Source: Thermoanaerobaculia bacterium (GTDB taxonomy: Bacteria; Acidobacteriota; Thermoanaerobaculia; Multivoradales; UBA5704). From it: DNA of 64,000 bases. Every line of letters begins with the position of its first letter. Position 1 is the first letter of the stretch. Positions 4,402 to 19,487 of this stretch are shown piece after piece. The DNA lies in assembly GCA_044866775.1 (NCBI GenBank), contig JBIOUG010000097.1, forward strand, positions 1,852 through 65,851, written 5' to 3'. A program made the translations under genes and the position numbers. Below the pieces are notes generated by a model. That model searched no databases and had not been told where the DNA came from. It worked only from the letters and a program-made list of their open reading frames with translations.

Positions 4402-5154
4402 ATGATCGACCTGCACTGCCACATCCTCCCCGGCATCGACGACGGCGCGCGCAGCATGGAGGCCGCGGTGGCGATGTGCCGGCTGGCGATCGCCGACGGC
4501 TGTACGGCGATGGTCGCGACACCCCACCAGCGGCGCGGCGGGTGGTGGAACTGCGATCCCGAAGCGCTCGCGGAGCTGCGGCTGACGCTGCAATGGGCGG
4601 TGGGCGCCGAGCTCACGATCCACTCCGGCGGCGAGGTGCACGTCGATTCGCACCTCCTGGCCGAGGTGGCGCGGATGCCCGAGAGCGGCATCCTGCCGCT
4701 CGCCGGCTCGCGCTACCTGCTCGTCGAGTTCGACGCCGCCGGCCGGGCGCGCGAGGCCATCGAGCTGGTGCACGAGCTGGCCGTCGCCGGCTGGCGCCCG
4801 GTCCTGGCGCACCCCGAGATGGTACCCTGGCTGGCCGACGATCCGGGCCTGGTCGCGCGCCTGGTCGAGCTCGGGGCGACGACTCAGGTCACGGCGATGA
4901 GCATCACCGGCGACTTCGGGCGGCGGCCGGAGGCCGATGCCTGCCGCCTGCTCGACGCCGGCCTGGTGCACTTCGTGGCCAGCGATTCGCACGACCTCTA
5001 TCGCCGCCCGCCGGGGCTGCGCCGCGCCTACCGCACGATCGCCGGGCGCTGGGGCGAGGAGGTGGCGCAGCGACTGGTCGCCGACAACCCGCGCGCGGTG
5101 GTCGAGAACCAACCGCTACCGGTCGCGAACGCACATCTCGAGAGGAACGCCTGA
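4402..5154 (+). CDS. PHP-family (CpsB/CapC/YwqE) protein-tyrosine phosphatase
   Basis: MIDLHCHILPGIDDGA, ATPH, LAHPE and ASDSH motifs; follows wzc. Confidence 0.92.
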   Translation: MIDLHCHILPGIDDGARSMEAAVAMCRLAIADGCTAMVATPHQRRGGWWNCDPEALAELRLTLQWAVGAELTIHSGGEVHVDSHLLAEVARMPESGILPLAGSRYLLVEFDAAGRAREAIELVHELAVAGWRPVLAHPEMVPWLADDPGLVARLVELGATTQVTAMSITGDFGRRPEADACRLLDAGLVHFVASDSHDLYRRPPGLRRAYRTIAGRWGEEVAQRLVADNPRAVVENQPLPVANAHLERNA

Positions 5155-5155
5155 C

Positions 5156-6232
5156 GTGGCAGCCCGCAGCTTTCGCCTTCCGCTCGCCGCGATCGCCGCG
5201 GTCGCGGCAGCGCTCGTCGCCCTCGGTGGCCCGGCCGCCGCCGCCGCCGAGGTGGACGCCTTCCACGCCGGGCTGCTGATCGACGGCGCCCACGCCTACG
5301 ACCGCCGCGACTTCGCGACGGCGGCGCGCCACCTGCGCCTCGCCTGCTTCGGCTACCTCGAAGAGCCGCCGGCGCTGGCGGGCTGCCTGACCCGGCTCGG
5401 CGCCGCCCAGGCGGCCGCCAACGACGCCGAGGGGTTCGCCGAGAGCTTCCGCCGCATCGTCGAGGTGGAGGAGCGGTTCGGCGCCTACAGCGCCGCGGAC
5501 GTCCCGGCGGCGGTGCGCACGGCGTTCGAGGAGCGCGTGGTGGCGACGATCCCGACCGCCACGCTCGCGGCGGTCCCCGCGTTCGCGCCGCTCGCGAAGC
5601 GCAAGGCCGAGGCCGAGAGGCTGGCCGCGCTGTCGCCCAAGGAGCGGCGGCGCGCGGAGGAGGAGAAGCGCAAGGCGGAGCAGAAGCGGCAGCCGGCTGC
5701 CGAGACGAAGACCGCGAAGCGACCGGCGGCAGCCGGCTCTCCGCCCGGCAACGCGGCGATGACCGCGACCGCCGCGCCGAAGCGGGAAGCGGCCCCCGCG
5801 CCGCCGCCGGCCGCGGCGGCACCCGCCGCCCCGGCGCCGCTCACGCCGGCCGAGCTGGCGAAGCTCGCACAGGCACGGCAGCTCCTCGCCTCGAGCAGCC
5901 CCGACGACCTGGGGCGGGCACTCACTCTGGCGCGCGAGGTCGCCGACGCGCGGCCGGCGGCGCGCGAGGCGCAGCATCTCGCCGGCGAGGCCGCCTACCG
6001 CAGCGCCCGCTGGCGCGAGGCGGCGACCTACTTCCGGCGCGGCGGCGACCCCGGCGACACGCAGCCGGAGCTGCTGTTCTACCTGGCGGTGGCGCTCTAC
6101 GAGTCCGGCGACCGCGATGCCGCCGCGACGGTCCTCGAGCGCTCGCTGCCCAACCTCGAGCGCACTCCGTACGTCGATTCGTACGCCAAGCGCATCCTTC
6201 GCCCGCGCAGCGCGAATCTGCCCGGGCGATGA
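5156..6232 (+). CDS. Exported TPR-containing protein with Pro/Ala linker
   Basis: GTG at 5156, signal peptide, helical N-domain, Ala/Pro/Lys-rich linker, C-terminal TPR-like repeats (AQHLAGEAAYRSARWREAATYF; LFYLAVALYESGDRDAAATVLE). Confidence 0.7.
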   Translation: MAARSFRLPLAAIAAVAAALVALGGPAAAAAEVDAFHAGLLIDGAHAYDRRDFATAARHLRLACFGYLEEPPALAGCLTRLGAAQAAANDAEGFAESFRRIVEVEERFGAYSAADVPAAVRTAFEERVVATIPTATLAAVPAFAPLAKRKAEAERLAALSPKERRRAEEEKRKAEQKRQPAAETKTAKRPAAAGSPPGNAAMTATAAPKREAAPAPPPAAAAPAAPAPLTPAELAKLAQARQLLASSSPDDLGRALTLAREVADARPAAREAQHLAGEAAYRSARWREAATYFRRGGDPGDTQPELLFYLAVALYESGDRDAAATVLERSLPNLERTPYVDSYAKRILRPRSANLPGR

Positions 6233-6238
6233 CTACTC

Positions 6239-6267
6239 TTGACCGCAGAGCCGTTTACGCCTATCGT
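6239..6267 (+). promoter_or_regulatory. Putative sigma70 promoter
   Basis: TTGACC, 17 bp, TATCGT, 36 bp upstream of ATG 6304. Confidence 0.4.
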
Positions 6268-6303
6268 GATGCTCGGACCCCGTCCCCGAAAGCGAGCCTC
6301 GCC

Positions 6304-6939
6304 ATGACGCGATCCCTTCTTCTCGCCGGCGCCGCCGCGCTCGTCCTCGCGGCGTCCGCCCAGGCCCAACCGACGACGAACGTCGACGAGCTGCGCTGCG
6401 TGCCGGTCGCCGGCAACGCCGTCGTCCACGGCAGCGCCAGCGGCGAGCCCGCCGGCAGCTCGATCCGCCTCTACTTCCGCTGGCAGGGGCACGACGAGTT
6501 CTTCTGGGTCGAGATGGAGCCCGAGGGCGCCGGCCGCTACTGGGCGATCCCGCCGCGGCCGGAGCAGCGCAACAACCAGGTCGAGTACTACTCGACGATC
6601 CTCGACGCCGCCGGCAAGGAGCTGGCGCGCAGCGCCCCGCGCATCGCCAAGGTCACCGGCGACTGCAAGATCCAGCTCTCGCCGCGCGAGCAGGGCGTGG
6701 CCAACAACCTCACCGTCGGCGAGACCGCGCCGCACCAGCAGGGCAAGACGGTCCTCGGCTTCCTCTGCGAAGGCATCGTCACCCGCATCAACTGGCAGGG
6801 GATCCGCCGCGCCGACGAAGTCTGCCGCGCCTGCGTCATCGCCTGGTGGGAGCGCAAGGCCGTGCTCATCCCGGCCACCGGCGTCACCGGGATCCTGATC
6901 GTCGATCCGGATCCCGAGCCTTCCCCGTCGCGTCCCTGA
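6304..6939 (+). CDS. Exported hypothetical protein with Cys residues and hydrophobic C-terminal tail ending PSPSRP
   Basis: Signal peptide MTRSLLLAGAAALVLAASAQA; typical GC3 codon bias; five Cys. Confidence 0.7.
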   Translation: MTRSLLLAGAAALVLAASAQAQPTTNVDELRCVPVAGNAVVHGSASGEPAGSSIRLYFRWQGHDEFFWVEMEPEGAGRYWAIPPRPEQRNNQVEYYSTILDAAGKELARSAPRIAKVTGDCKIQLSPREQGVANNLTVGETAPHQQGKTVLGFLCEGIVTRINWQGIRRADEVCRACVIAWWERKAVLIPATGVTGILIVDPDPEPSPSRP

Positions 6940-8831: not shown

Positions 8832-9656
8832 ATGGAGCCGACGGGCGGGGTGGGAGCGGCGGTCGCCGGCTGCGGCGACTGGCGCGACGAGCTGGAGCGC
8901 ATCGAGGCCGCGCTCGAGGAGGCGGCCGCGGCGCTCGCCCGCTTCACGCCGGGAGAGGTGGCGGCGCGGCGGAAGAGCGGCGACGACCCGGTGACCGAGG
9001 CCGACACGACGGTCGACGCTCTGCTGCGCCGCCTGCTGCCGCGCCCCGGCGAAGGGTGGCTCTCGGAGGAGACGCTCGACGATCTCTCCCGCACCGAGCG
9101 GCGGCGGGTGTGGGTGGTCGACCCGCTCGACGGCACGCGCGAGTTCGTGGCCGGCATCCCCGAATGGTCGGTCTCGGTCGGGCTGGTCGTCGACGGCGAG
9201 CCAGTGGCCGGTGGCGTCCTCAACCCCGCCACCGGCGAGCGGGTGGTCGGCGCGTGGGGTTGCGGCGTGCGCCTGAACGGCGAGCCGGCGGCGGTCTCGC
9301 CGCGCCAGCACCTCGACGGCGCTCTGGTGCTCGCCAGCAGGAGCGAGGTCGGGCGCGGCCAGTGGCAGCGCTTCGCCGGCGCTCCCTTTACGGTCCGCCC
9401 GATGGGCTCCGTCGCCTACAAGCTGGCGCTGGTCGCCGCCGGCCGGGCCGACGCCACCTGGACCCTGGTCCCGAAGCACGAATGGGACGTGGCGGCGGGC
9501 GTGGCGCTGGTCCTCGCCGCCGGCGGCGAGGTGCGCGCCGGGCACCCCGAGGAGGCGCTCTTCAACCGCCGCGAGCCCCGCCTCACGCGCCTCATCGCGG
9601 CCAACGCCGCGCTCCTGCCCCAGATCGAGGAAGCGATCCGCACGACCGGCGGATAG
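8832..9656 (+). CDS. cysQ: 3'(2'),5'-bisphosphate nucleotidase (inositol monophosphatase family)
   Basis: DPVTEAD, LSEE, WVVDPLDGTREF and EWDVAAG motifs; adjacent to sat-cysC. Confidence 0.88.
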   Translation: MEPTGGVGAAVAGCGDWRDELERIEAALEEAAAALARFTPGEVAARRKSGDDPVTEADTTVDALLRRLLPRPGEGWLSEETLDDLSRTERRRVWVVDPLDGTREFVAGIPEWSVSVGLVVDGEPVAGGVLNPATGERVVGAWGCGVRLNGEPAAVSPRQHLDGALVLASRSEVGRGQWQRFAGAPFTVRPMGSVAYKLALVAAGRADATWTLVPKHEWDVAAGVALVLAAGGEVRAGHPEEALFNRREPRLTRLIAANAALLPQIEEAIRTTGG

Positions 9657-9725
9657 CCGCGCGGCTCTGGCGCGGTTCTTGCGGTGCCGGCCGCAAGGAG
9701 CGGATCCTCGAGGATCCGAAAAGCA

Positions 9726-10037
9726 ATGAGACAGCGTCACCTCCGCCTCACCGTCAGCTTGTCTCTGTTCCTTGTCCTCGCGGCCGCCCCTGCTCTGCAG
9801 GCGCTCCCTTCGCAGCGGCCGGCGGAGGCTCTCTGGCAGTCGCCCGTGGCGCTCTTCGTCGACTGGCTCGCCAAGATCGCCGACCGGCTGGGCTGGGCGG
9901 ACACGGCCGGCGAGCCGGCGCCGCGCGCCGTCCTGGCGCCGGACGAGGAAGGTGGAACCCCGCCCCCACCCACGCCGGATGGCGACGACGGCATGTGCAC
10001 CGACCCCGACGGGCACCGCGTACCCTGCACGCCGTAG
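9726..10037 (+). CDS. Small secreted peptide precursor with C-terminal GMCTDPDGHRVPC motif
   Basis: ATG 9726, Sec signal peptide (..LVLAAAPALQA), amphipathic W-rich helix, Pro/acidic linker, two Cys. Confidence 0.6.
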   Translation: MRQRHLRLTVSLSLFLVLAAAPALQALPSQRPAEALWQSPVALFVDWLAKIADRLGWADTAGEPAPRAVLAPDEEGGTPPPPTPDGDDGMCTDPDGHRVPCTP

Positions 10038-10127
10038 GTGAGCCGTGCCACGGGTCGAGGTTTTGCGCATGCGCCCGGGCCTCGTGGCAACGTTCTCGCA
10101 TGCAATCAGGCCCCTGAAGGGGAAGCT

Positions 10128-11486
10128 GTGCTCGAAGTACTGAAGCAGAAGCGCCACGCGATCCGGACTTCAACGCTCAAGCGCTTCGTCGCCGGGCAGG
10201 CGAACCGGCACGAGGGGCAAGAGATCGTGCGCCATCTCGTCGACGGCTGCGAAGCCTGCCGGCGGTGGATCCGGAACAACGCCTGGGGACCGACAGGGGA
10301 GCGCCCGGAGCCGCCGCCGGGAGCCTACGACCGAGCGTTCGCCGCCGCCGAGGCGGTGGCCCGGGCGGAGGCCGAGCGCCGCAGTCTCGAGGTGCGGGAG
10401 CTGCTCGCCGAGCTCGCGGCGCTGCCAACTGAGGAACGAGAGGCGAGGATCGGCAACTCGCGGCGCTTCGGCTCCACAGCTCTCGCGGCGGTTCTCGTCG
10501 CGCGAAGCCACGAAGCGCGCTATCGCGACGCGGACGCCATGCTCGCCGACGCGCGCCTGGCCGTTGCCGCGGCCGAAGCCGCGGCGGCGGTGGCGCGCGC
10601 CGAGGAGTTGCTCGAGGTCAAGGACTGCCTGGCCAAGGCCTGGGGTCAGCTCGCCAACGTCCATCGCCTGCGGGGCAGCCTGCTCGACGCCGAGGACGCG
10701 TTCGCGGTGGCCTTCCATCACCTCGAGGAGGGGACCGGCGAGCTCGGGCTACGGGCGGAGCTCTACGGCCGTCTCGCTTCGCTGCGCCGCGCGCGACGCC
10801 AGTTCTACGAGTCGATCGAGCTCCTACGGCGAGCGATCGCCATCCATCGGCGCCTCGACGATCCTTCGGGAGAGGCCGCGGCCCGGATCAAGCTCGGCAT
10901 TTCTTACATCTATGCCGGCGATGCCCAGGCGGCGGTCGGGCTCCTCACTCGCTGCCTGGAGGAGCTCGACCCGCGGCACCATCTCGATCTCGTCCGCGCC
11001 GCCAGCCAGAACCTGGTTGTCTGCTACTTGGACCTGGGGCAGCCGGCGCGCGCCCATGCGCTGTGGGTCGAGACGGAGCCGCTGTTCGCCGGCTGCGACG
11101 ACGAGTTGGAGCTGCTCCGCCGCGCTTGGCGCCGCGGCACGATCGACGGCGAGCTGGGGCGTCTCGACATCGCCGAGGCCTGCCTCCTGGCGGTGCGCGA
11201 GGGCTTCCTCGGCCACGGGCTCGCAATGGAGTCGGCGATCGCCTCCCTCCACCTCGCCGCCGTCTACCTGCGGCAGCGCCGTGTCGCCGACGTGGTGCGC
11301 ACGATCGGCGAGATCATCCCCATCTTCCAGTCCTTCGGCTGGGAGCAGGAGATCCTCGCCTCGCTCACCCAGCTCGCCGGCGTCGCGCACGACGTGCGGG
11401 CCGCCCTCGAGCTGCTCAAGCACATCTCGCGCTCCGTCGAGCGCGGCGCCGACAGCCTGGCGAGCGCCGGCCTGCCTCACGACTGA
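10128..11486 (+). CDS. TPR-repeat protein with N-terminal zinc-finger anti-sigma-like motif
   Basis: GTG after GAAGGGGA RBS; H..x17..HLVDGCEAC resembles the ZAS HxxxCxxC motif; multiple TPR-like helix pairs; no signal peptide. Confidence 0.75.
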   Translation: MLEVLKQKRHAIRTSTLKRFVAGQANRHEGQEIVRHLVDGCEACRRWIRNNAWGPTGERPEPPPGAYDRAFAAAEAVARAEAERRSLEVRELLAELAALPTEEREARIGNSRRFGSTALAAVLVARSHEARYRDADAMLADARLAVAAAEAAAAVARAEELLEVKDCLAKAWGQLANVHRLRGSLLDAEDAFAVAFHHLEEGTGELGLRAELYGRLASLRRARRQFYESIELLRRAIAIHRRLDDPSGEAAARIKLGISYIYAGDAQAAVGLLTRCLEELDPRHHLDLVRAASQNLVVCYLDLGQPARAHALWVETEPLFAGCDDELELLRRAWRRGTIDGELGRLDIAEACLLAVREGFLGHGLAMESAIASLHLAAVYLRQRRVADVVRTIGEIIPIFQSFGWEQEILASLTQLAGVAHDVRAALELLKHISRSVERGADSLASAGLPHD

Positions 11487-11712
11487 GCCCGCAGCTCCGG
11501 CGCGAGTCCCTTCTGGCCGACGGGCGGGGCGGAGGAGCTGCTGCCTCCGGCACGATCGCGGGTGCGCTGAGCGGACGGGCCGGCGCGCCGGCCGCGCGGG
11601 CAGAGTGCCGGCGCTCGTCGCGGGCCGCGTGGACCGCGAGGGCCGCCGCCGCGGCCAGATGGGTGACGACCTGCGGCTCGTGGACACTCCGCCTGCCCAG
11701 GCGGGAAAGCGA

Positions 11713-11907
11713 CCGGACCGGCGTCTTTCCCTCCCGGACCGAGCCCTTCCCCTCCTGGCCATCCGTCGTTCCCTCGTGGACCGCGCTTCCGCCCGCATGG
11801 ACGAGGTTCGCTCCCTGCCGGGCGCCGCTCCCGCTGTCGTGGACGGTGGTCGTCGCCTCGCCGCTGACCCTCGCTTCTGGGTGGACGACCGCCCGTCGCT
11901 CCCGCGC
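11713..11907. repeat. Degenerate 21-bp-period tandem repeat
   Basis: NNGGAC-like hexamers at 11713, 11734, 11755, 11776, 11797, 11818, 11839 and 11881, all multiples of 21 bp apart. Confidence 0.6.
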
Positions 11908-11991
11908 GCCCGCGCGGCGGTCCCGGCCCGGCACGCGCCGACGCCGGCAACCAGGTGCGCCCGGCCGCCGCCGGCACGGGGCCTCGGCCGG

Positions 11992-12020
11992 TTGCCAGAC
12001 GGCGCCCCTTCTGCCACAAT
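11992..12020 (+). promoter_or_regulatory. Putative sigma70 promoter for the glycosyltransferase operon
   Basis: TTGCCA, 17 bp, CACAAT with an extended -10 TG at 12012-12013. Confidence 0.45.
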
Positions 12021-12086
12021 TCCGCCCGCGCACCCGCGAACAGTCTGACCGCGTTGGGTTTGACCGCGCAGTAGCAGTCCATCGAC

Positions 12087-13310
12087 GTGCCGATCGCTCG
12101 ACCCGAAGTCGACCTCCGCTTCGCCGGGATGCCTGAGCCGGAAGCGCCGCCGCCGGCGCCCGCCGGCGCGCCATTCCCGCGCCGCCGCCGCGGCCTGGTC
12201 CTGGTCTCGGCCGGGCTGGCGCTCGAGGGCGGCGGCCGGGCCCTGGCCGGGCGCCTCCTGGCCGGCGCCTGCGCCGCCTACGCGCGCGAGGAAGGCATCG
12301 GCTTCCGCGTGCTCGCCCTCGGCTCGGCGCCGCTGCCGGTCGACTGCGCGGCCGCGCGCTGCTTCGGCGATTGCCAGCTCGCCCTCGCCCGTGCCGCCTG
12401 GGCGGGCCAGCTCCGCCGCCGCCCGGAGGCGTACGTCTTCGATCTCCTGGGACCGGCGCGGGTGCAGGCGCTGCTGCCCGCTTCCCGCCGCGCGCCGTAT
12501 CTGGTGCCGCTCTACGGCATCGAGGCCTGGCGCCCGCTCTCCTGGGACCGCGCCCGCGCCCTGCGGCTCGCCGACGCGGTCGTCGCGATCTCGCGCCACA
12601 CCGTCGAGCGTGCCCGCCCGTTCTGCCCCGGCCTCGACCGCGCCGCGGTCCTGCCGCTGGCGCTCGAGGAGCGGCCGCCGGAAGGCGCCGTGGACCGCGC
12701 GCTCCTCGAGCGGCTCGGCGACGGCTTCGTGCTCATCGTCGGGCGCCTGGCGCCCGGCGAGCGCTACAAGGGGCACGACGAGCTGCTCGAGGCGATCCCC
12801 CGCCTGCTGGCCGCGGCGCCGGAAGCGCGGCTCGTCGTGGCGGGCGACGGCGCCGACCGGCCGCGCCTCGCCGCCCGCGCGGCGAGCCTCGGCTTGGACG
12901 GCCGCGTGACCTTCACCGGCTTCGTCAGCGAAGCCACTCTCGCCGAGATCTACCGGCGCTGCGCCCTCTTCGCCATGCCCAGCCGCGGCGAGGGCTTCGG
13001 GCTCGTGTTCCTCGAAGCGATGCGCGCCGCCAAGCCCTGCGTCGCGGCGCGCGGCAGCGCCGCCGAGGAGGTCGTGGTGGACGGCGAGACCGCGCTCCTC
13101 GTCGACCCCGCCGACGGCGAGGCGCTGGCGGCGGCGCTCGCCCGCCTGCTGCGCGAGCCGGCCCTCGCCCACCGCCTCGGCGAGACCGGCCGGCGGCGCT
13201 GGCAGCGCGAGTTCACGGTCGAGCGCTTCCGCGCCGGCCTCCGACCGCATCTCGACCGCCTGACGCGGGAGGCGCCGGCGCTCCCGCGCCGGGCCCCGAG
13301 CGACGTCTAG
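12087..13310 (+). CDS. GT4 family glycosyltransferase
   Basis: VGRL..ERYKGHD and MPSRGEGFGLVFLEAM motifs. Confidence 0.9.
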   Translation: MPIARPEVDLRFAGMPEPEAPPPAPAGAPFPRRRRGLVLVSAGLALEGGGRALAGRLLAGACAAYAREEGIGFRVLALGSAPLPVDCAAARCFGDCQLALARAAWAGQLRRRPEAYVFDLLGPARVQALLPASRRAPYLVPLYGIEAWRPLSWDRARALRLADAVVAISRHTVERARPFCPGLDRAAVLPLALEERPPEGAVDRALLERLGDGFVLIVGRLAPGERYKGHDELLEAIPRLLAAAPEARLVVAGDGADRPRLAARAASLGLDGRVTFTGFVSEATLAEIYRRCALFAMPSRGEGFGLVFLEAMRAAKPCVAARGSAAEEVVVDGETALLVDPADGEALAAALARLLREPALAHRLGETGRRRWQREFTVERFRAGLRPHLDRLTREAPALPRRAPSDV

Positions 13311-13312
13311 CC

Positions 13313-15163
13313 ATGTGCGGCATCAACGGCCTCCTCCGCCTGCGCGACGACGCGCCGCCGCTCGACCCGGGCGAGCTGCTCGCGACGCGCGACGCCATGG
13401 CGCGCCGCGGCCCGGACGGCGAAGGCGCCTGGCTCGCGCCCGACGGCCGCGTCGCCCTCGCCCATCGGCGGCTCGCGATCCTCGACCTCTCTCCCGCCGG
13501 CGCGCAGCCGATGGCCTCGCCCGACGGGCGCCTGCGCATCGTGCTGAACGGCGAGATCTACAACTTCCGCGCCCTGCGGGCCGAGCTCGAGCGCGACGGC
13601 CGGAGCTTCCGCTCGCAGAGTGACACCGAGGTGCTGCTCGCCCTCTACGCGCGCGATGGCGAGGCGATGCTCGGTCGGCTGCGCGGGATGTTCGCGCTGG
13701 CGCTCTGGGACGCCGAGCGCGGCCGGCTGCTGCTGGCCCGCGACCCCCTCGGGATCAAGCCGCTCTACTACGCGGTCGCGGGCGGCGTCCTGCGCTTCGC
13801 CTCGCAGGTCAAGGCGCTCGAGGCCGGCGGCGGCATCCCGCTCGCGCTCGACCCGGCCGGCCTCGGCGGTTTCCTCTTGTGGGGATCGGTCCCCGAGCCC
13901 TGGACCCTGCGCCGCGCCGTGCGGGCGCTACCCGCCGGGCACCTGCTGCGCGTCGAGCAGGGCCGCGTCGACGGACCGCTCGCCTTCTATCGCCCCGCCG
14001 TGGAGCCGCCGCCGGAGCCGGCCGCCGACGCGCCCGATGCGCCCGATCTGGTGACCGCCCTCGCCGAGTCGGTGCGCGACCATCTGGTCTCCGACGTGCC
14101 GGTCGCGGTCTTCCTCTCCGCCGGTCTCGACTCGAGCCTGCTCGCGGCGCTCGCCTGCCGCGCGCTGCCGGAGCCGCCGGCCACCTTCACCTTACGCTTC
14201 GACGCCCTCGCCGGCACGCCGCTCGACGAGGCGCCGCTCGCCGCCGAGGTCGCGCGGCGGCTGGGCACCCGCCACCTCGAGCGCACCGTCCGGCGCGAGG
14301 AGTTCCTCGACCTCTGGCCGGCCGCTCTCGCCGCCATGGACCAGCCGTCGATCGACGGCTTCAACATCTTCCGGGTGAGCCGCGCGGCGCACGCGGAAGG
14401 GCTCAAGGTGGTCCTCTCAGGCCTCGGCGGCGACGAGCTGTTCGGCAGCTATTCCTCGTTCGCCGACGTGCCGCGGCTCGCCCGCGCCGCGCGCCGCGGC
14501 CGGCGCCTGCCGGGCCTCGCGCCGCTCTGGCCGCCGCTCGCCCGCGGCGTCTTCCGCGACCGGCCGAAGCTCGCCGGCGCGCTGCGCTACGGCGCCACGC
14601 TGCCCGGGGCCTACTTTCTGCGCCGCGCCCTGTTCCTGCCCGAAGAGCTGCCGGCGTTGCTCGGGCGCGACGGCGCCGCCGAGACGCTTGCCGCCTACGA
14701 TCCGGTCGCCGACGCCGGCAAGCTCCTGCCGTCGTCTCACCGCAATGGCCACCTAGGCGCCGCCGCTGCCTGGCAGGCGGTGCATCTCATGGAGACGACG
14801 CAGTACATGCGGAACCAGCTCCTGCGCGACGCCGACTGGGCCGCCATGGCCCACTCGCTCGAGCTGCGGGTGCCGCTGGTCGACGCGCGCCTCTACGCCC
14901 AGCTCGCGGCGCTCGACTTCGAGCCGGCGCGGTCGCTGGGCAAGGCCGAGGTGGTGCGGCGGGCGGCGCCGGAGCTGCCGGAGGCGGTCTTCCGCCGGCC
15001 GAAGACGGGCTTCTATGTGCCGGTCACCGCGTGGCTCGCCGGCGCCGGAACCGGAGCGGCTTCCGCGCCGCCGAGTTTGGGGGCGCAATCGCGCTTGCTG
15101 GCGCGCCGGGTGCTGGCGGAGCACGGGGTTACGCTCGCCGACGATCCCAGGGGAGACGGCTGA
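13313..15163 (+). CDS. asnB: Asparagine synthase-family glutamine amidotransferase (likely polysaccharide amidation, WbpS-like)
   Basis: MCGI with catalytic Cys, RRGPD, HRRLAILD, NGEIYN, LSAGLDSS, SGLGGDELF; inside the glycan locus. Confidence 0.9.
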   Translation: MCGINGLLRLRDDAPPLDPGELLATRDAMARRGPDGEGAWLAPDGRVALAHRRLAILDLSPAGAQPMASPDGRLRIVLNGEIYNFRALRAELERDGRSFRSQSDTEVLLALYARDGEAMLGRLRGMFALALWDAERGRLLLARDPLGIKPLYYAVAGGVLRFASQVKALEAGGGIPLALDPAGLGGFLLWGSVPEPWTLRRAVRALPAGHLLRVEQGRVDGPLAFYRPAVEPPPEPAADAPDAPDLVTALAESVRDHLVSDVPVAVFLSAGLDSSLLAALACRALPEPPATFTLRFDALAGTPLDEAPLAAEVARRLGTRHLERTVRREEFLDLWPAALAAMDQPSIDGFNIFRVSRAAHAEGLKVVLSGLGGDELFGSYSSFADVPRLARAARRGRRLPGLAPLWPPLARGVFRDRPKLAGALRYGATLPGAYFLRRALFLPEELPALLGRDGAAETLAAYDPVADAGKLLPSSHRNGHLGAAAAWQAVHLMETTQYMRNQLLRDADWAAMAHSLELRVPLVDARLYAQLAALDFEPARSLGKAEVVRRAAPELPEAVFRRPKTGFYVPVTAWLAGAGTGAASAPPSLGAQSRLLARRVLAEHGVTLADDPRGDG

Positions 15164-16473
15164 TGGAGGCCGTCACCGTCGCCGTCGCTCCGGCGGGTCC
15201 GGTCGCCCGCCTCAAGCGCTGGAGCGGCATTTTCGCCGCCTACTTCACCACGCAGACCGTGACTCAGCTCGCCGGAATCGCGGCCGGCCTGCTGCTGGTA
15301 CGGGCGCTGCCCGTGCGCGAGTTCGCGCTCTATACGATGGCCGCGTCGGTGATCGGCTTCTTTTCCTTCGTCACCGACTTGGGGAGCACGACCTCCCTTC
15401 TCCACTTCTTCCGCCGCGACAAGGGAGGAGCGGAGTTCGCTGCCTACCGGCGAGCGGTGTTGTCGCTTCGGCGCCTCGCCTTCCTGCTCGGGATGCTGGC
15501 GGTTCTCGCCGCGTTTCCGGCGGCGGCCGCCGCCGAGGGATTCAGCGCCGGTGAGTCGCTGCTGGCCACCGCCGGCATCCTCCTCTGCGTCTGGTTTCAG
15601 ATCGACGCCTCGCTCCGGCTCCTGACGCTCCGTCTCCAAGATCGCTACGGCCGCTCCTACCGCGCCGAGCTGGCGGGCGCGCTCCTCCGTCTCGGCGCGA
15701 CCGCGGCTCTGATCGCGCTCGCCTGGCTCGAGGCGTGGCTCGCAATCCTCGCCACCACCGCCGGCACGGCGCTCGCCGCGCGCCTCGCCACGGCGGCGGA
15801 GCCAGCCGAGGCGGGCGCTGCCGAGTCCGTACCGCCCTTGGGCCCCTACCGCCGACGGGTCGTCCACTACCTCCTCCCCACTCTGCCGAGCGCCTTCTAT
15901 TTCGCTCTTCGGGGGCCGCTCACGGTCTGGCTCGCTGCCGCCTTCGGCGCTCCTCAGACCATCGCCGAGGTCGGGGCGCTCGGGCGCCTCGGGCTCATCG
16001 TCGGTCTCTTCTCGGGGCTGATCGGCGTCGTCTTCCTGCCCCATCTTTCGCGCACCGACGACCGCCTCTACCTCCTCCGCTATCTGCAGTTCGGCGGACT
16101 GCTGGCGGCGGTGGCGGCGGCGCTCCTCCTCGCCGCCTGGGTGTCGCCGCGCCCGTTCCTCTGGCTCCTCGGCGAGCGCTATTCTGGCCTCGACCACGAG
16201 TTGCTGCTGGTGGTGGCCAACGCCGGAGTCGCGCTGATCGGCGGCTATGTGGTGAGCGTCAACATGGCCCGCTCCTGGACCCGGTGGCAGGCGCTGACCG
16301 TCGTCCTCGAGATGTGCGTGCTGGCCGCCGGCGTTGCTGCGCTGCCGCTGTCGACGAGCGCCGGGATCCTCACGCTGGGCCTCCTCTGCGCGGCCAGCGG
16401 CACGCTCCTCCAGACAGTCGTCACCTATGTCGGCTTCCGCCGCCCCGCCTGGGTCCAGTGGCACCGCGCCTGA
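15163..16473 (+). CDS. Polysaccharide flippase (Wzx-like, MOP superfamily)
   Basis: About 12 hydrophobic segments; N-terminal LLLVRALPVREFALYT pattern; locus context. Confidence 0.72.
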   Translation: MEAVTVAVAPAGPVARLKRWSGIFAAYFTTQTVTQLAGIAAGLLLVRALPVREFALYTMAASVIGFFSFVTDLGSTTSLLHFFRRDKGGAEFAAYRRAVLSLRRLAFLLGMLAVLAAFPAAAAAEGFSAGESLLATAGILLCVWFQIDASLRLLTLRLQDRYGRSYRAELAGALLRLGATAALIALAWLEAWLAILATTAGTALAARLATAAEPAEAGAAESVPPLGPYRRRVVHYLLPTLPSAFYFALRGPLTVWLAAAFGAPQTIAEVGALGRLGLIVGLFSGLIGVVFLPHLSRTDDRLYLLRYLQFGGLLAAVAAALLLAAWVSPRPFLWLLGERYSGLDHELLLVVANAGVALIGGYVVSVNMARSWTRWQALTVVLEMCVLAAGVAALPLSTSAGILTLGLLCAASGTLLQTVVTYVGFRRPAWVQWHRA

Positions 16474-16483
16474 GCGAGGAACC

Positions 16484-17479
16484 TTGTCTGCCGCGGTGAC
16501 GACCATCGAACCCCTGCGCGGAAAGCGTGTGCTGATCACGGGAGGCCTCGGCTTCATCGGCCTCAACGTGGCGCCGGCCTTCCTGGCCGCGGGGGCGCAG
16601 GTGCGCATCCTCAACCGCTCCGCCCACCCGCTGGCGCTGAAGTGGCTCGGCCAGATCGCGGACGGCCACCCGGTCGAGGTCTGCCAGGGGAACATCGGCG
16701 ATGGTGACGGGATGCGGGCGTGGCTCGCAGGCGTCGACGTCGTTGTCAACCTCGCCGGGGAGTCAGGCGCGGTCAAGAGCCTGCAGGAGGCGCGGTCGGA
16801 CATGCAGGTCAATGTCGCCGGCCACCTCACTCTCCTCGACACGGTGCGCACCATCGGGGCCTTGCCGCGCGTCGTCTTCGTCTCGAGCCGGCTCGTCTAC
16901 GGAGTGACCGGCTCGACTCCAGTTGCCGAGGAGCGCCCGGCGCGGCCGACCAGCCTCTACGGCTTGCACAAGCTGACGGTGGAGCACTACCACCGCATCC
17001 ATTGGGAGCAGTACGGCATCCCGTCGACGATCCTGCGGCTGACCAATCCCTACGGTCCGTTCCAACTGCCCCACCGCCTGCACTATGGCGTGGTCAACCG
17101 CTTCATCATGACCGCAATCCAAGGGGGGACCATCACCCTCTTCGGCGACGGCGGTCAGCTCCGCGACTACGTTTTCGCCGCGGACGTCGCGGAGGCCCTG
17201 CTGCGCGCGTGCGTCGAGGAACGCGCCGTAGGCCAGGTCCTGAACGTCGGCTCCGGAGTCTCGGTCGGTGTCGGAGAGGTGGCACGCCGCATCGTCGCCG
17301 CCGCGGGCTCAGGCAGCGTCGAATCCGCTCCTTGGCCGCACGACGAACAGAAGGTCGAGACCGGTGACTTCCTCTGCGACACCAGCCGTATCCGGGAGAT
17401 CCTCGGCTGGCAGGCCCGGACAGACCTCGACGACGGTCTGCGCCTGACCGTGCAGAGCTACCGGAGCCTCCTCACGTGA
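16484..17479 (+). CDS. NAD-dependent epimerase/dehydratase
   Basis: ITGGLGFIG, YGLHK (YxxxK), NPYGP and GDGGQLRDYVF motifs. Confidence 0.9.
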   Translation: MSAAVTTIEPLRGKRVLITGGLGFIGLNVAPAFLAAGAQVRILNRSAHPLALKWLGQIADGHPVEVCQGNIGDGDGMRAWLAGVDVVVNLAGESGAVKSLQEARSDMQVNVAGHLTLLDTVRTIGALPRVVFVSSRLVYGVTGSTPVAEERPARPTSLYGLHKLTVEHYHRIHWEQYGIPSTILRLTNPYGPFQLPHRLHYGVVNRFIMTAIQGGTITLFGDGGQLRDYVFAADVAEALLRACVEERAVGQVLNVGSGVSVGVGEVARRIVAAAGSGSVESAPWPHDEQKVETGDFLCDTSRIREILGWQARTDLDDGLRLTVQSYRSLLT

Positions 17480-18435
17480 CCGCCCTGACCTCACCGCCCA
17501 AGTCTCCAGGACGCGCACGGGCGGGTCTCACCCGCGTGCGCAACTCGGCCGCCTATCGCTCGTCGGCGGTCTACCGCCTCCTGTTGCGGCTGGTGCCGCC
17601 CCCCGCCACCCGCTCCCGGCCGGAGCTGCCGCTGACTCTGCTCACCTTCGGCGGCGCCGCCCACCTGGCGATGATCGAGCAGCTCCTCGCCTCCGTGCAC
17701 CGCGCGTGGCCGCGCCTGCCGCGGGTCCGTGTGGTGTCGGACGGGTCACTGCCGCTGGCGGCGGCGAGGGAGGCCCTGGCCTGGTGGCCCGGGAGCTGTG
17801 AGCTCGCGGTCTGGACCGATACCATCCCCGCGCTGCGCGCCGCGGGCCACGATCACCTCGTTCGCTTCGCCGAGCGCGAGCCCATGGGGAGGAAACTCGC
17901 GGCGGTGGCAGCCAGCGCCGCCGCCGGACCGACGGTCTACTGCGACGCGGACGTTCTCTGGTTCCGGTTCCCCGCGAGCCTCCAGCGGCTCCTCGCGATG
18001 CCGCCGCCGGCCCTCGTGATGTCGGAGGACCCGCACCCCGCCTACGATCCGGCGCTGGTGCCGGGGCTCCTTCCCCATCTCGCCGCGCCACCCCACTCCT
18101 GCGCCGGCCTGCTCTACGCGGCAGGCGACTTCCTGGGCGCGTGCGAGGTCGAGGACCTTCTTGCCTACGCGGCCGCGCACGGGATCGGAGTGACGGAGCA
18201 GACGATCCTCGCCGAGGTGAGTCATCAGCTCGGCGGCGGCCTTTGGCCGGCACGCGAGATCGCCCTCGTGGAAGGCGACCGCTTCACAATGGCCCCGAGC
18301 TTCCGCGGCTGCGCCTGGGCGGCGCGACACTACGTCGGCCAGGTGCGGCACATCTTCTGGCGCGATGCGCTGGCGCTGCGGATCGGCATGGCTCCCGGAC
18401 CGGTGCGGGATGACGGAACGGGGACGGCGCCATGA
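17476..18435 (+). CDS. Putative GT-A fold glycosyltransferase
   Basis: YCDADVLWF DxD motif, AGLL, TEQT, RHYVG; translationally coupled within the operon. Confidence 0.6.
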   Translation: MTALTSPPKSPGRARAGLTRVRNSAAYRSSAVYRLLLRLVPPPATRSRPELPLTLLTFGGAAHLAMIEQLLASVHRAWPRLPRVRVVSDGSLPLAAAREALAWWPGSCELAVWTDTIPALRAAGHDHLVRFAEREPMGRKLAAVAASAAAGPTVYCDADVLWFRFPASLQRLLAMPPPALVMSEDPHPAYDPALVPGLLPHLAAPPHSCAGLLYAAGDFLGACEVEDLLAYAAAHGIGVTEQTILAEVSHQLGGGLWPAREIALVEGDRFTMAPSFRGCAWAARHYVGQVRHIFWRDALALRIGMAPGPVRDDGTGTAP

Positions 18436-19487
18436 GCCTCATCCAGCTCGTTCCCCGCCTGCCGTCGCCGCCCGAGGGGGTCGGCGGCCACGCCCAAGCT
18501 CTCGCCGCGGCGTTGCGCGAGCGCGGCGGCGTCGAGAGCCGTTTCCTGGTGGGCGATCCCGCGTGGCCGGCCGGCGAGGCCGCCCGCGAGGCGAGGACGA
18601 TCCCGGCGCGCAGCGCCGTGACGCTCGAGCGCGTGCTCGAGGAGATGCGGGCCGAGACGGTGCTCCTCCACTACGCCAACTATGGCTATCAGCGCCGCGG
18701 CTGCCCCGCCTGGCTCGTCGCCGGACTGGCGCGCTGGCGCGCGCGCGGCGACGGCCGGCGCCTGGTGACGATCTTCCACGAGGTCCACGCCAGCGGCCCG
18801 CCGTGGCGCAGCTCGTTCTGGCTGCGGCCGCTGCAACGGCGGCTGGCGGCGGCTCTCGCCGCGGCGAGCGACGCGCTCGCGACCAGCCTCGACCTCTATG
18901 CTCGCGCGCTCCTGTCCTGGGCGCCGGGCAAGCGGATCGTGGTCTTGCCGGTCTTCTCGAACGTCGGCGAGCCGGCCGCCGTGTCGCCGCTCGCGACCCG
19001 CCGGCGGCGGCTGATCGTCTTCGGCGGCGCCGGCGTCCGCGCGCGCGCTTACGGACGGGCGCTGCCGGAGCTGGCGGTGGCCTGCGAGCGGCTGGGCATC
19101 GAGGAGGTGCTGGACGTCGGCCCGGGGGCGGAGACGCCGGCGCCGGCGACGATCGGCGGCGTGCCGGTGCGGTCGGTCGGACCGCTCCCCGGCTCGGCGG
19201 TGGGGACTCTCCTCGGCGAGTCCCTCGCCGGCTTCCTCGCCTACCCGCCGCCGTTTCTCGCCAAGTCGACGATCTTCGCCGCCTATTGCGCGCACGGCAT
19301 GCTGCCGGTCTGCTCCTGGACCGGCGCTTCCCGCCCCGGCGCTCCGCTCGACGCCCGGCTCTACTGGCGGCCGCGATCCAACGGCTTCCCGCCCGATGCC
19401 CAGGCGATCGCCAGCGCCGGCCGGAGCTGGTACCTCGAGCACGCGTTGGCCCGGCAAGCCGAGACCTACCGCGAGCTGCTGGCGTGA
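18432..19487 (+). CDS. GT-B fold glycosyltransferase (divergent GT4-like)
   Basis: EGVGGHA N-terminal motif, FHE, SNVGEP, KSTIFAAYCAHG. Confidence 0.7.
   Translation: MSLIQLVPRLPSPPEGVGGHAQALAAALRERGGVESRFLVGDPAWPAGEAAREARTIPARSAVTLERVLEEMRAETVLLHYANYGYQRRGCPAWLVAGLARWRARGDGRRLVTIFHEVHASGPPWRSSFWLRPLQRRLAAALAAASDALATSLDLYARALLSWAPGKRIVVLPVFSNVGEPAAVSPLATRRRRLIVFGGAGVRARAYGRALPELAVACERLGIEEVLDVGPGAETPAPATIGGVPVRSVGPLPGSAVGTLLGESLAGFLAYPPPFLAKSTIFAAYCAHGMLPVCSWTGASRPGAPLDARLYWRPRSNGFPPDAQAIASAGRSWYLEHALARQAETYRELLA

Follow-up and report, generated by a model that had tools for sequence, protein, structure and literature searches.

Encoded peptide signalling through cytoplasmic tetratricopeptide repeat (TPR) receptors is presented as characteristic of the Bacillota in the part of PMC10075063 covered here, and the control of extracytoplasmic function (ECF) sigma factors is usually explained through membrane-spanning anti-sigma factors in the covered part of PMC7826278. 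The latter source also records soluble anti-sigma factors in 10 ECF groups, a likeness that concerns us here. Its covered text describes no ECF group with a co-encoded secreted peptide or from Thermoanaerobaculia; its supplementary group tables lay outside the comparison and could list the sigma group. Here we analyse a gene pair (positions 9726–11486) in a 64,000-nucleotide stretch of contig JBIOUG010000097.1 from a Thermoanaerobaculia bacterium (Acidobacteriota), the whole of which is referred to as the window. The pair lies within an exopolysaccharide (EPS) locus and comprises a gene for a small protein with a signal peptide and a gene for a soluble protein in which a zinc-binding anti-sigma (ZAS)-type domain precedes a TPR superhelix. 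Judged from sequence comparisons, it is one copy of a regulatory module specific to the class Thermoanaerobaculia, whose two genes are strictly and anciently paired. An initial annotation, made from the letters of the window, had proposed a peptide-signalling pair analogous to the RRNPP systems of the Bacillota.

Anatomy of the gene pair

We consider the following anatomy very probable; the evidence for each feature is given after the semicolon.

9726..10037, + strand: gene for a 103-aa exported pro-protein (P0001); open reading frame (ORF), coding GC pattern, family alignments
9726..9803, + strand: signal peptide, residues 1–26; MRQRH, hydrophobic core, ALQA
9837..9899, + strand: amphipathic Trp-rich helix, residues ~38–58; hydrophobic moment, family alignments
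9921..9932, + strand: P66-R-A-V69, a 'PRA[VI]' patch kept in close paralogues, between helix and loop; alignments
9939..9980, + strand: degenerate first repeat unit (PDEEGGTPPPPTPD); family alignments
9996..10028, + strand: intact unit C91-T-D-P-D-G-H-R-V-P-C101; family alignment
10128..11486, + strand: gene for a soluble 452-aa ZAS-TPR protein (P0002); ORF, Pfam, homologue alignment, model
10128..10292, + strand: ZAS-type anti-sigma domain, residues ~1–55, with H10, H36, C41 and C44; alignment, profile searches
10425..11387, + strand: TPR superhelix, residues ~100–420, predicted local distance difference test (pLDDT) mostly >90; Pfam, AlphaFold2 (AF2) model, fold search

The small ORF runs from ATG 9726 to the stop codon TAG at 10037 and encodes 103 amino acids. 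Its N-terminus reaches a Kyte-Doolittle maximum of 1.93 (19-residue window) and would be cleaved by a type I signal peptidase; a small-x-small pattern closes the hydrophobic core in 89 of the 94 distinct upstream peptides that make up our family collection, at least two of which look like wrong-frame artefacts. The amphipathic helix is predicted from a single calculation, the hydrophobic moment, which peaks at residues 38–58. A Pro/acidic stretch separates it from the C-terminal Cys loop, and the PRA[VI] patch may be a processing site. The last 13 residues (C91-T-D-P-D-G-H-R-V-P-C101-T-P, the 13-mer CTDPDGHRVPCTP) carry the intact unit, whilst PDEEGGTPPPPTPD is the counterpart, by alignment, of the first Cys-DPxG-Cys unit in paralogues with two units, and retains neither the Cys pair nor the motif; the window peptide thus has one intact and one decayed unit. 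The signal peptide, amphipathic segment, Pro/acidic stretch and C-terminal Cys-DPDG-Cys described initially are therefore borne out by sequence and calculation.

GC content at the three codon positions is 0.77/0.57/0.87 in the small ORF and 0.78/0.49/0.89 in the TPR gene, the same coding signature. Because the coding GC mirrors that of the TPR gene, and because the ORF and its pairing are kept in paralogues, relatives and metagenomes, the small ORF can be regarded, beyond chance, as a real gene for a pro-protein of exported type. Neither the window peptide nor 30 diverse relatives matched a Pfam or NCBIfam model at cut-off, and the ESM Atlas returned only Acidobacteriota 'hypothetical protein' clusters for the peptide, none with a Pfam family.

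The frame of the TPR gene is open from 10038. Its likely start, GTG 10128, agrees with homologues and follows the Shine-Dalgarno-like GAAGGGGAAG, which upholds the 90-bp spacer first annotated between the genes. The 452-aa product has no transmembrane-grade segment (hydrophobicity maximum 1.38) and is hence soluble, again as annotated; its only Pfam matches are to TPR models (TPR_12, E 9e-9). The AF2 model (alignment of 21 homologues, mean pLDDT 85) is all-helical; three short helices at the N-terminus are joined by a long one to a superhelix of ~8 TPR pairs. Foldseek against the PDB returned peptide-binding TPR superhelices first (LGN/Pins, E ~1e-7, TM ~0.7 on target), with Rap pheromone receptors from rank 25, below LGN (E ~1e-5, rmsd 12–13 Å). 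No sequence-family match to RRNPP receptors was found for the protein in Pfam and NCBIfam.

The zinc-type motif of the window protein is H36-x4-C41-x2-C44 plus a distal H10. An alignment of 32 N-terminal segments, drawn from paralogues, relatives and metagenomes, showed invariant H36, C41 and C44 and a nearly invariant H10; most relatives share the H-x4-C-x2-C spacing and few have H-x3-C. A profile of these N-termini (A3) matched solved anti-sigma domains, namely ChrR (2q1z_B, E 1e-4), DdvA (8rlz_A, E 2e-4) and RslA (3hug_B, E 0.014). These alignments span the distal His and the H...C-x2-C, and H10 falls on the N-terminal His-His pair of ChrR, whose zinc ligands are His6, His31, Cys35 and Cys38. 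Pfam zf-HC2 was matched by 6/32 segments (best 6.5e-6), and its curated cut-off was passed by two further relatives (P0024 and P0140). By these profile matches the window N-terminus is homologous to ZAS anti-sigma domains, and it may, like them, bind zinc and sequester a sigma factor. The ZAS assignment in the initial annotation thus stands, but the HxxxCxxC-like motif on which it was based does not, since the window protein lacks the canonical H-x3-C-x2-C of ZAS/zf-HC2.

Pairing and distribution of the module

To the genome carrying the window (G000; 196 contigs, 92% complete) we could assign 21 TPR-protein matches, 29–47% identical to the window protein apart from itself. Thirteen copies have a signal-peptide ORF with the motif directly upstream on the same strand (contigs C97, C177, C189, C143, C145, C186, C62, C147, C52, C139, C194, C72 and C66). 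At two more, both on C116, the peptide ORF lies upstream of an intervening sigma gene, one peptide having a degenerate ...SLGSDG end. No peptide ORF was found at six copies (C161, C17, C71, C35, C95 and a fragment on C4). Among 31 related genomes, the TPR family occurred in 28 (18/18 within the same family; 1–50 matches per genome), and a profile of ten peptides from G000 had matches in 19 (17/18 within the family). When loci in these relatives were seeded with the peptide, 29/30 had a TPR homologue directly downstream (exception, L039).

A single-protein search of metagenomes confirmed nothing, and a profile search (alignment A2) gave 79 TPR-seeded loci. These were screened for an ORF that encodes a signal peptide and, within the final 70 residues, [DE]-P-x-G, and that ends ≤1 kb upstream; a locus was evaluable when ≥350 nt of upstream sequence was available. 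Such a peptide was found upstream in at least 39 of the 66 evaluable loci, compared with 4/66 on the opposite strand and 3/39 downstream. Most negatives hold an intervening sigma gene, at least 14 having a peptide ORF upstream of that gene, and several of the remainder are cut by contig ends. TPR homologues without adjacent DPxG genes, which had been named at the outset as the result that would speak against the pair, are therefore not what either set of loci shows.

In a phylum-wide sample with 8 candidates scored per genome, the family (E ≤ 1e-20) was present in 8/201 Acidobacteriota genomes, all of the same class; one positive (G053) is unpublished, and without it the count is 7/200. A full-length profile run against 1.84 billion cluster representatives recovered 3,927 proteins at E ≤ 1e-30 and 26,945 at E ≤ 1e-10, corresponding to ~3,900 family clusters counted at 50% identity. 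Homologues are named simply 'tetratricopeptide repeat protein' in their sources, and the one organism name encountered, 'Thermoanaerobaculia bacterium', belongs to a 54%-identical homologue.

The DPxG motif of the peptide family

Common to the family peptides are the signal peptide, a Trp-rich helix (pattern W..W...WLGW) and one to four hydrophobic-D-P-(N/D)-G units. By a loose motif count, 53, 27, 7 and 2 of the 94 peptides have one, two, three and four units, respectively, and five have none. The unit types counted were IDPNG (37), IDPDG (14), VDPNG (9), MDPNG (8), IDGNG (6), LDPNG (5) and MDPDG (5), and the motif Gly is the very last residue in 28/94. In a 33-sequence alignment the extended unit reads D-x-G-x-x-hydrophobic-D-P-(N/D)-G, with G96 alone invariant and D93 nearly so. 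The Cys-Cys loop highlighted initially is not the element that is conserved; many relatives have no Cys. Because a Cys pair flanks the motif in only 37/94 peptides, the pair and its predicted disulfide loop are best seen as a sub-family ornament, the core being hydrophobic-D-P-(N/D)-G. Tandem units at the extreme C-terminus resemble pheromone-like anatomy, closer to a pro-pheromone than to a structural protein. Literature searches on IDPNG, IDPDG, VDPNG, MDPNG and 'DPNG motif' found nothing on the module, and returned mostly the invertase NDPNG and unrelated subjects.

Modules with a sigma factor, an HTH regulator or neither

The module occurs in three forms. In form A, an ECF sigma gene (Sigma70_r2 and r4) stands between the peptide and ZAS-TPR genes, and on C116 of G000 the ZAS-TPR start codon overlaps the sigma stop codon. 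In form B, the peptide and ZAS-TPR genes are followed by a gene, mostly convergent, for a ~140-aa XRE-type helix-turn-helix (HTH) protein (HTH_31, E 1e-7). The window copy and its orthologues constitute form C, with neither gene. Amongst the 79 metagenome loci, 26 had a sigma gene, 18 an HTH gene and none had both. The existence of sigma-linked relatives supports the anti-sigma link drawn in the initial annotation. Motif type also followed module form: sigma-linked peptides mostly end in I-D-(G/D/N)-N-G without Pro (13/17) and the others in D-P-x-G (75/77), an association that is descriptive, as relatives share labels (clade-level co-variation). Recurrent neighbours across 118 loci were limited to sigma (23) and HTH (20) genes and syntenic LptF/G-like and Ndh-like genes.

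Some variants were seen alongside these forms. On C62 of G000 (L007 region), two tandem XRE-HTH genes lie downstream of one module, and on C116 two tandem peptide-sigma-ZAS-TPR units are followed by Ndh-like and LptG-like genes, a context that recurs in 7–10 metagenome loci. Nine long relatives scanned for sigma domains had none, so no fused sigma/anti-sigma form was found among them. The distant TPR relatives P0022, P0023 and P0133 are fused to an XRE-type HTH (PF01381/PF13560), and hence this TPR type also exists in a PlcR-like single-chain architecture.

The pair as a resident of the EPS locus

All genes around the pair are on the + strand. Upstream lie a Wza-like gene (Poly_export/SLBB), a Wzc-like gene (Wzz/GNVR/AAA_31), two ORFs without a Pfam family, a gene for a bifunctional ATP-sulfurylase/adenosine phosphosulfate kinase (phosphoadenosine phosphosulfate (PAPS) synthase) and one for a CysQ-like phosphatase (8832–9656). 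Downstream lie genes for a family 4 glycosyltransferase (GT4), asparagine synthase, an epimerase, a second GT4, a methyltransferase, a GT2 and a carbamoyltransferase. The same order, Wzc ... PAPS synthase, peptide, TPR, GT4, AsnB, is seen in two congeneric species (G001 and G004; L143/L144), in which no CysQ-like gene was found between the PAPS synthase and peptide genes. Identity to the positional orthologues was 28% for the peptide and 55% for the TPR protein, compared with 61–83% for flanking EPS genes (counting only genes aligned over ≥80% of their length). Given its fixed position in three species, the pair has, on this comparative evidence, long and stably occupied the locus, while its sequence has changed much faster than those of the neighbouring genes. 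The initial view that it was inserted in the EPS locus is thus right as to place, with conserved synteny, but the pair is no recent arrival there.

Four long ORFs of the EPS locus (7–1143, 4937–6936, 15163–16470 and 17476–19484) have a strong coding GC pattern at the third codon position (GC3) and no Pfam family at E ≤ 1e-5. The 600 bp between the TPR and GT4 genes (11487–12086) are 77% GC and contain no frame with a coding GC3 pattern.

Spacer, upstream DNA and paralogue leaders

Features of the non-coding DNA around the window pair are as follows.

9701..9718, no strand: perfect 18-nt palindrome CGGATCCTCGAGGATCCG, 7 nt before the peptide ATG; sequence search
10038..10127, + strand: 90-bp spacer between the two genes, not conserved in orthologues or paralogues; sequence
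10065–10074, no strand: GCGCATGCGC, containing the first CGCATGC (10066–10072); sequence
10085–10100, no strand: sigma-54-like TGGCAACGTTCTCGCA with GG-N10-GC spacing; pattern match
10097–10103, no strand: second CGCATGC, 31 bp from the first; sequence
10117–10126, + strand: Shine-Dalgarno-like GAAGGGGAAG before GTG 10128; sequence

The CGCATGC pair and the palindrome around its first copy, noted initially, are present at the spacing given, but neither is conserved in orthologues or paralogues. In positional orthologues the two genes abut (gap 2–3 nt), so only this genome has the spacer with its motifs, and a reading of the repeats as a conserved family operator was rejected on the same absence. 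CGCATGC is locally enriched, with 3/9 window matches in the spacer, a judgement made post hoc. TGGCAACGTTCTCGCA is the only match in 64 kb, with 0.33 expected for a pattern written after the site had been seen; its -12 part overlaps the second CGCATGC, and rpoN is present in the genome, on C116. A sigma-54 reading of this site is a preliminary lead, and the site is not conserved. The palindrome CGGATCCTCGAGGATCCG, absent from paralogues, could be an operator or an RNA hairpin. A further hairpin with 12-nt arms (9673–9702) directly follows the cysQ stop codon. A scan of 9400–12200 for sigma-70 promoters and terminators gave no site near the pair; the sole promoter-like site there, TTGCCA-17-CACAAT (11992–12020), precedes the glycosyltransferase gene. 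An Rfam scan of the whole window at gathering thresholds gave 0 matches.

The paralogues differ in their non-coding DNA. Spacers between their peptide and TPR genes (e.g. C177, C145, C62 and C143) hold a TTGAC (-35)/TATAGAAT (-10)-like site, with the GTG only 10–11 nt past the -10 box; this points to a separate promoter for the TPR gene and a near-leaderless mRNA. Paralogous peptide genes are preceded by a highly conserved ~75-nt leader, reading (G/T)GGCACTATGCG, GCGGGCGCCCCGCGCCGC, CGGGCTCCGACCCGCCGGAGGAGG and then ATG, of which the window copy has none. Copies in G000 are:

L002:3242–3331, - strand: leader
L005:3233–3322, - strand: leader
L004:3209–3298, - strand: leader
L006:1012–1101, + strand: leader
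L007:980–1069, + strand: leader
L011:1324–1413, - strand: leader
L003:174–263, + strand: leader

The leader is predicted to fold into two hairpins, and a CUCC:GGAG pairing would additionally hide the Shine-Dalgarno sequence; the high similarity of the copies leaves no covariation to bear on this structure. A sigma-54 reading of the conserved TGGCACTATGCG before paralogous peptide genes was rejected by eye, the GG-to-GC spacing being wrong.

A possible peptide-linked anti-sigma switch and its alternatives

We tentatively favour a mechanism, at a little less than an even chance, in which the small protein supplies a ligand for the TPR protein and the two work as a soluble anti-sigma switch linked to a peptide; the steps of binding, processing and re-import, and EPS as the target, are all predicted. 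In its favour are the conserved pairing, the anti-sigma-type N-domain with its sigma-linked relatives, the fold likeness to peptide-binding TPR superhelices, the pheromone-like layout of the peptide, the clade-level co-variation of motif and module form, and the fast divergence of the pair. The pro-protein would be exported by Sec and then cut. Its conserved business end would be the C-terminal hydrophobic-D-P-(N/D)-G unit, closed in the window copy by the Cys91–Cys101 pair as a putative disulfide, and this peptide, or the state of the whole small protein, would report from the extracytoplasmic space. The peptide would then return to the cell and bind in the TPR groove, altering the hold of the ZAS domain on its partner. 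In sister modules the partner would be the ECF sigma factor or the XRE-type regulator, whilst that of the window copy would be encoded elsewhere. The likely output would be expression of (sulfated) exopolysaccharide genes, since the pair keeps the same position within a Wza/Wzc/PAPS-synthase/glycosyltransferase cluster. The genome encodes three OppA/DppA-type binding proteins, which makes re-import possible and says nothing further. A complex prediction for the TPR protein with mature peptide residues 27–103 scored 0.00 in both runs, made without controls, and carries no weight either way.

Several observations weigh against this ligand mechanism. No sigma or HTH gene of the linked families lies within the 64-kb window, so the window copy has no adjacent cognate ECF sigma gene, and no importer, protease or modifying enzyme recurs beside the module in the 118 loci. 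The window protein does not reach zf-HC2 at E ≤ 1, its spacing being H-x4-C. The LGN and Rap fold matches, with LGN ahead of Rap, are generic for TPR superhelices and do not speak for RRNPP ancestry. The D-P-(N/D)-G core is almost identical in ~15 paralogous peptides of one genome; paralogues of the Rap-Phr type diverge and so keep their orthogonality, and here specificity would have to sit in the flanking residues. Finally, the conserved pro-region helix suggests a small protein acting as a folded periplasmic protein and not as a mere carrier.

The last two points would suit a small protein that is itself the output, that is, cargo from the leading gene of a sigma/anti-sigma operon under its own control (for instance a peptide that is matrix-associated, adhesive or antagonistic, or that binds metal or Ca), with the TPR domain sensing some other cytoplasmic signal or protein. 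The peptide-sigma-anti-sigma order fits such an operon, the position in the EPS locus fits a matrix component, and the lack of a linked importer agrees with this reading. We nevertheless regard cargo as unlikely, though far from negligible, for the strict 1:1 pairing persists in modules that have lost the sigma gene or have an HTH gene in its stead, and the motif type of the peptide tracks the module type. In close paralogues, moreover, the promoter-like site in the spacer would serve the TPR gene alone, so that co-transcription is not what holds the genes together, and tandem short units at the C-terminus are more like those of pro-pheromones. Less probable again, and in our view improbable, is an export monitor, in which the TPR protein binds the DPxG unit of unexported precursor and the amount of precursor, reflecting Sec or envelope status, sets anti-sigma activity. 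Both proteins would then meet in the compartment where they are made, again without an importer, and an invariant core would be acceptable; an anti-sigma protein with no transmembrane segment, being soluble, needs some such link to the envelope. Dozens of paralogous modules per genome are, however, hard to fit to a single Sec-status signal, and the Cys-bracketed loops suggest disulfides formed outside the cytoplasm. The TPR region also has a weak NCBIfam similarity to the cyclophane-RiPP TPR protein HaaT (E 3e-6, far below cut-off), which, together with the repeated core-like units, would suit a ribosomally synthesised and post-translationally modified peptide (RiPP)-like product, for which the small ORF would encode the precursor and modifying enzymes would use the TPR protein as a scaffold or recognition partner. 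This we hold to be very improbable: no radical-SAM, cyclase, protease or transporter gene recurs near the module in the 118 loci, the precursor has a Sec-type signal peptide instead of a leader, and the partner bears an anti-sigma domain that is sigma-linked in relatives.

Returning to the ligand mechanism, its widest form is a doubtful one: cells of Thermoanaerobaculia would run dozens of parallel pheromone channels, in each of which a hydrophobic-D-P-(N/D)-G peptide, cut from its Sec-exported pro-protein outside the cytoplasm and closed by a disulfide in the window copy, returns, binds the TPR groove of a soluble ZAS factor and frees an ECF sigma factor or XRE regulator, the window copy gating sulfated exopolysaccharide. 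If true, this would be the first RRNPP-like encoded peptide signalling in a diderm phylum, and a new route linking ECF sigma factors to the outside without a membrane-spanning anti-sigma factor. Whatever the mechanism, the family that the module represents is very large and lacks annotation, a single genome holding up to 50 copies, and it belongs to a soil phylum that has received little study. The fixed EPS-locus position of the window copy offers a concrete phenotype, polysaccharide or biofilm production, on which the idea can be tested.

Comparison with known systems

The components are of known kinds, and their combination (a secreted DPxG peptide gene, a soluble ZAS-TPR protein and an optional ECF sigma factor or XRE regulator) was not found in Pfam, NCBIfam or the literature searches; those on Thermoanaerobaculia/TPR/anti-sigma and on RRNPP/Acidobacteria/Gram-negative/propeptide gave nothing on the module. 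Compared with the ZAS (class I) anti-sigma factors ChrR of Cereibacter sphaeroides (2q1z, 2z2s), DdvA of Myxococcus xanthus (8rlz) and RslA of Mycobacterium tuberculosis (3hug), the protein shares a helical N-domain with a distal His and H...C-x2-C, and in relatives its gene directly follows that of an ECF sigma factor, the start codon overlapping the stop codon of the latter. It differs in being soluble, with a large cytoplasmic TPR superhelix as the sensor in place of a transmembrane/periplasmic or cupin domain, in its H-x4-C spacing, in the many copies, including that of the window, without an adjacent sigma gene, and in the secreted peptide gene that the module includes.

With the RRNPP(A) systems of the Bacillota (Rap-Phr, NprR-NprX, PlcR-PapR, and Rap_pLS20 with the XRE-type repressor Rco), as presented in the covered part of PMC10075063, the module shares a Sec-type pro-peptide gene beside a gene for a cytoplasmic TPR protein, many paralogous pairs per genome, a fold search that returns Rap, and an added XRE-HTH partner in some modules; a conserved extreme C-terminus and tandem units are a further likeness (cf. 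the part of PMC11343458 consulted). The module differs from RRNPP in its phylum and diderm cell, in having the peptide gene upstream, and in a core motif that hardly varies between paralogues. Its output domain is of anti-sigma type and not a fused HTH or phosphatase surface, any HTH being encoded by a separate gene, and no homology was found beyond the generic TPR fold. The module is also like the ECF sigma factors with TPR regulation, such as ECF42 with its C-terminal TPR extension (PMC7826278, covered part), in that an ECF sigma factor would be controlled through a cytoplasmic TPR-bearing module, and unlike them in that the TPR domain is carried by the anti-sigma factor instead of being fused to the sigma factor.

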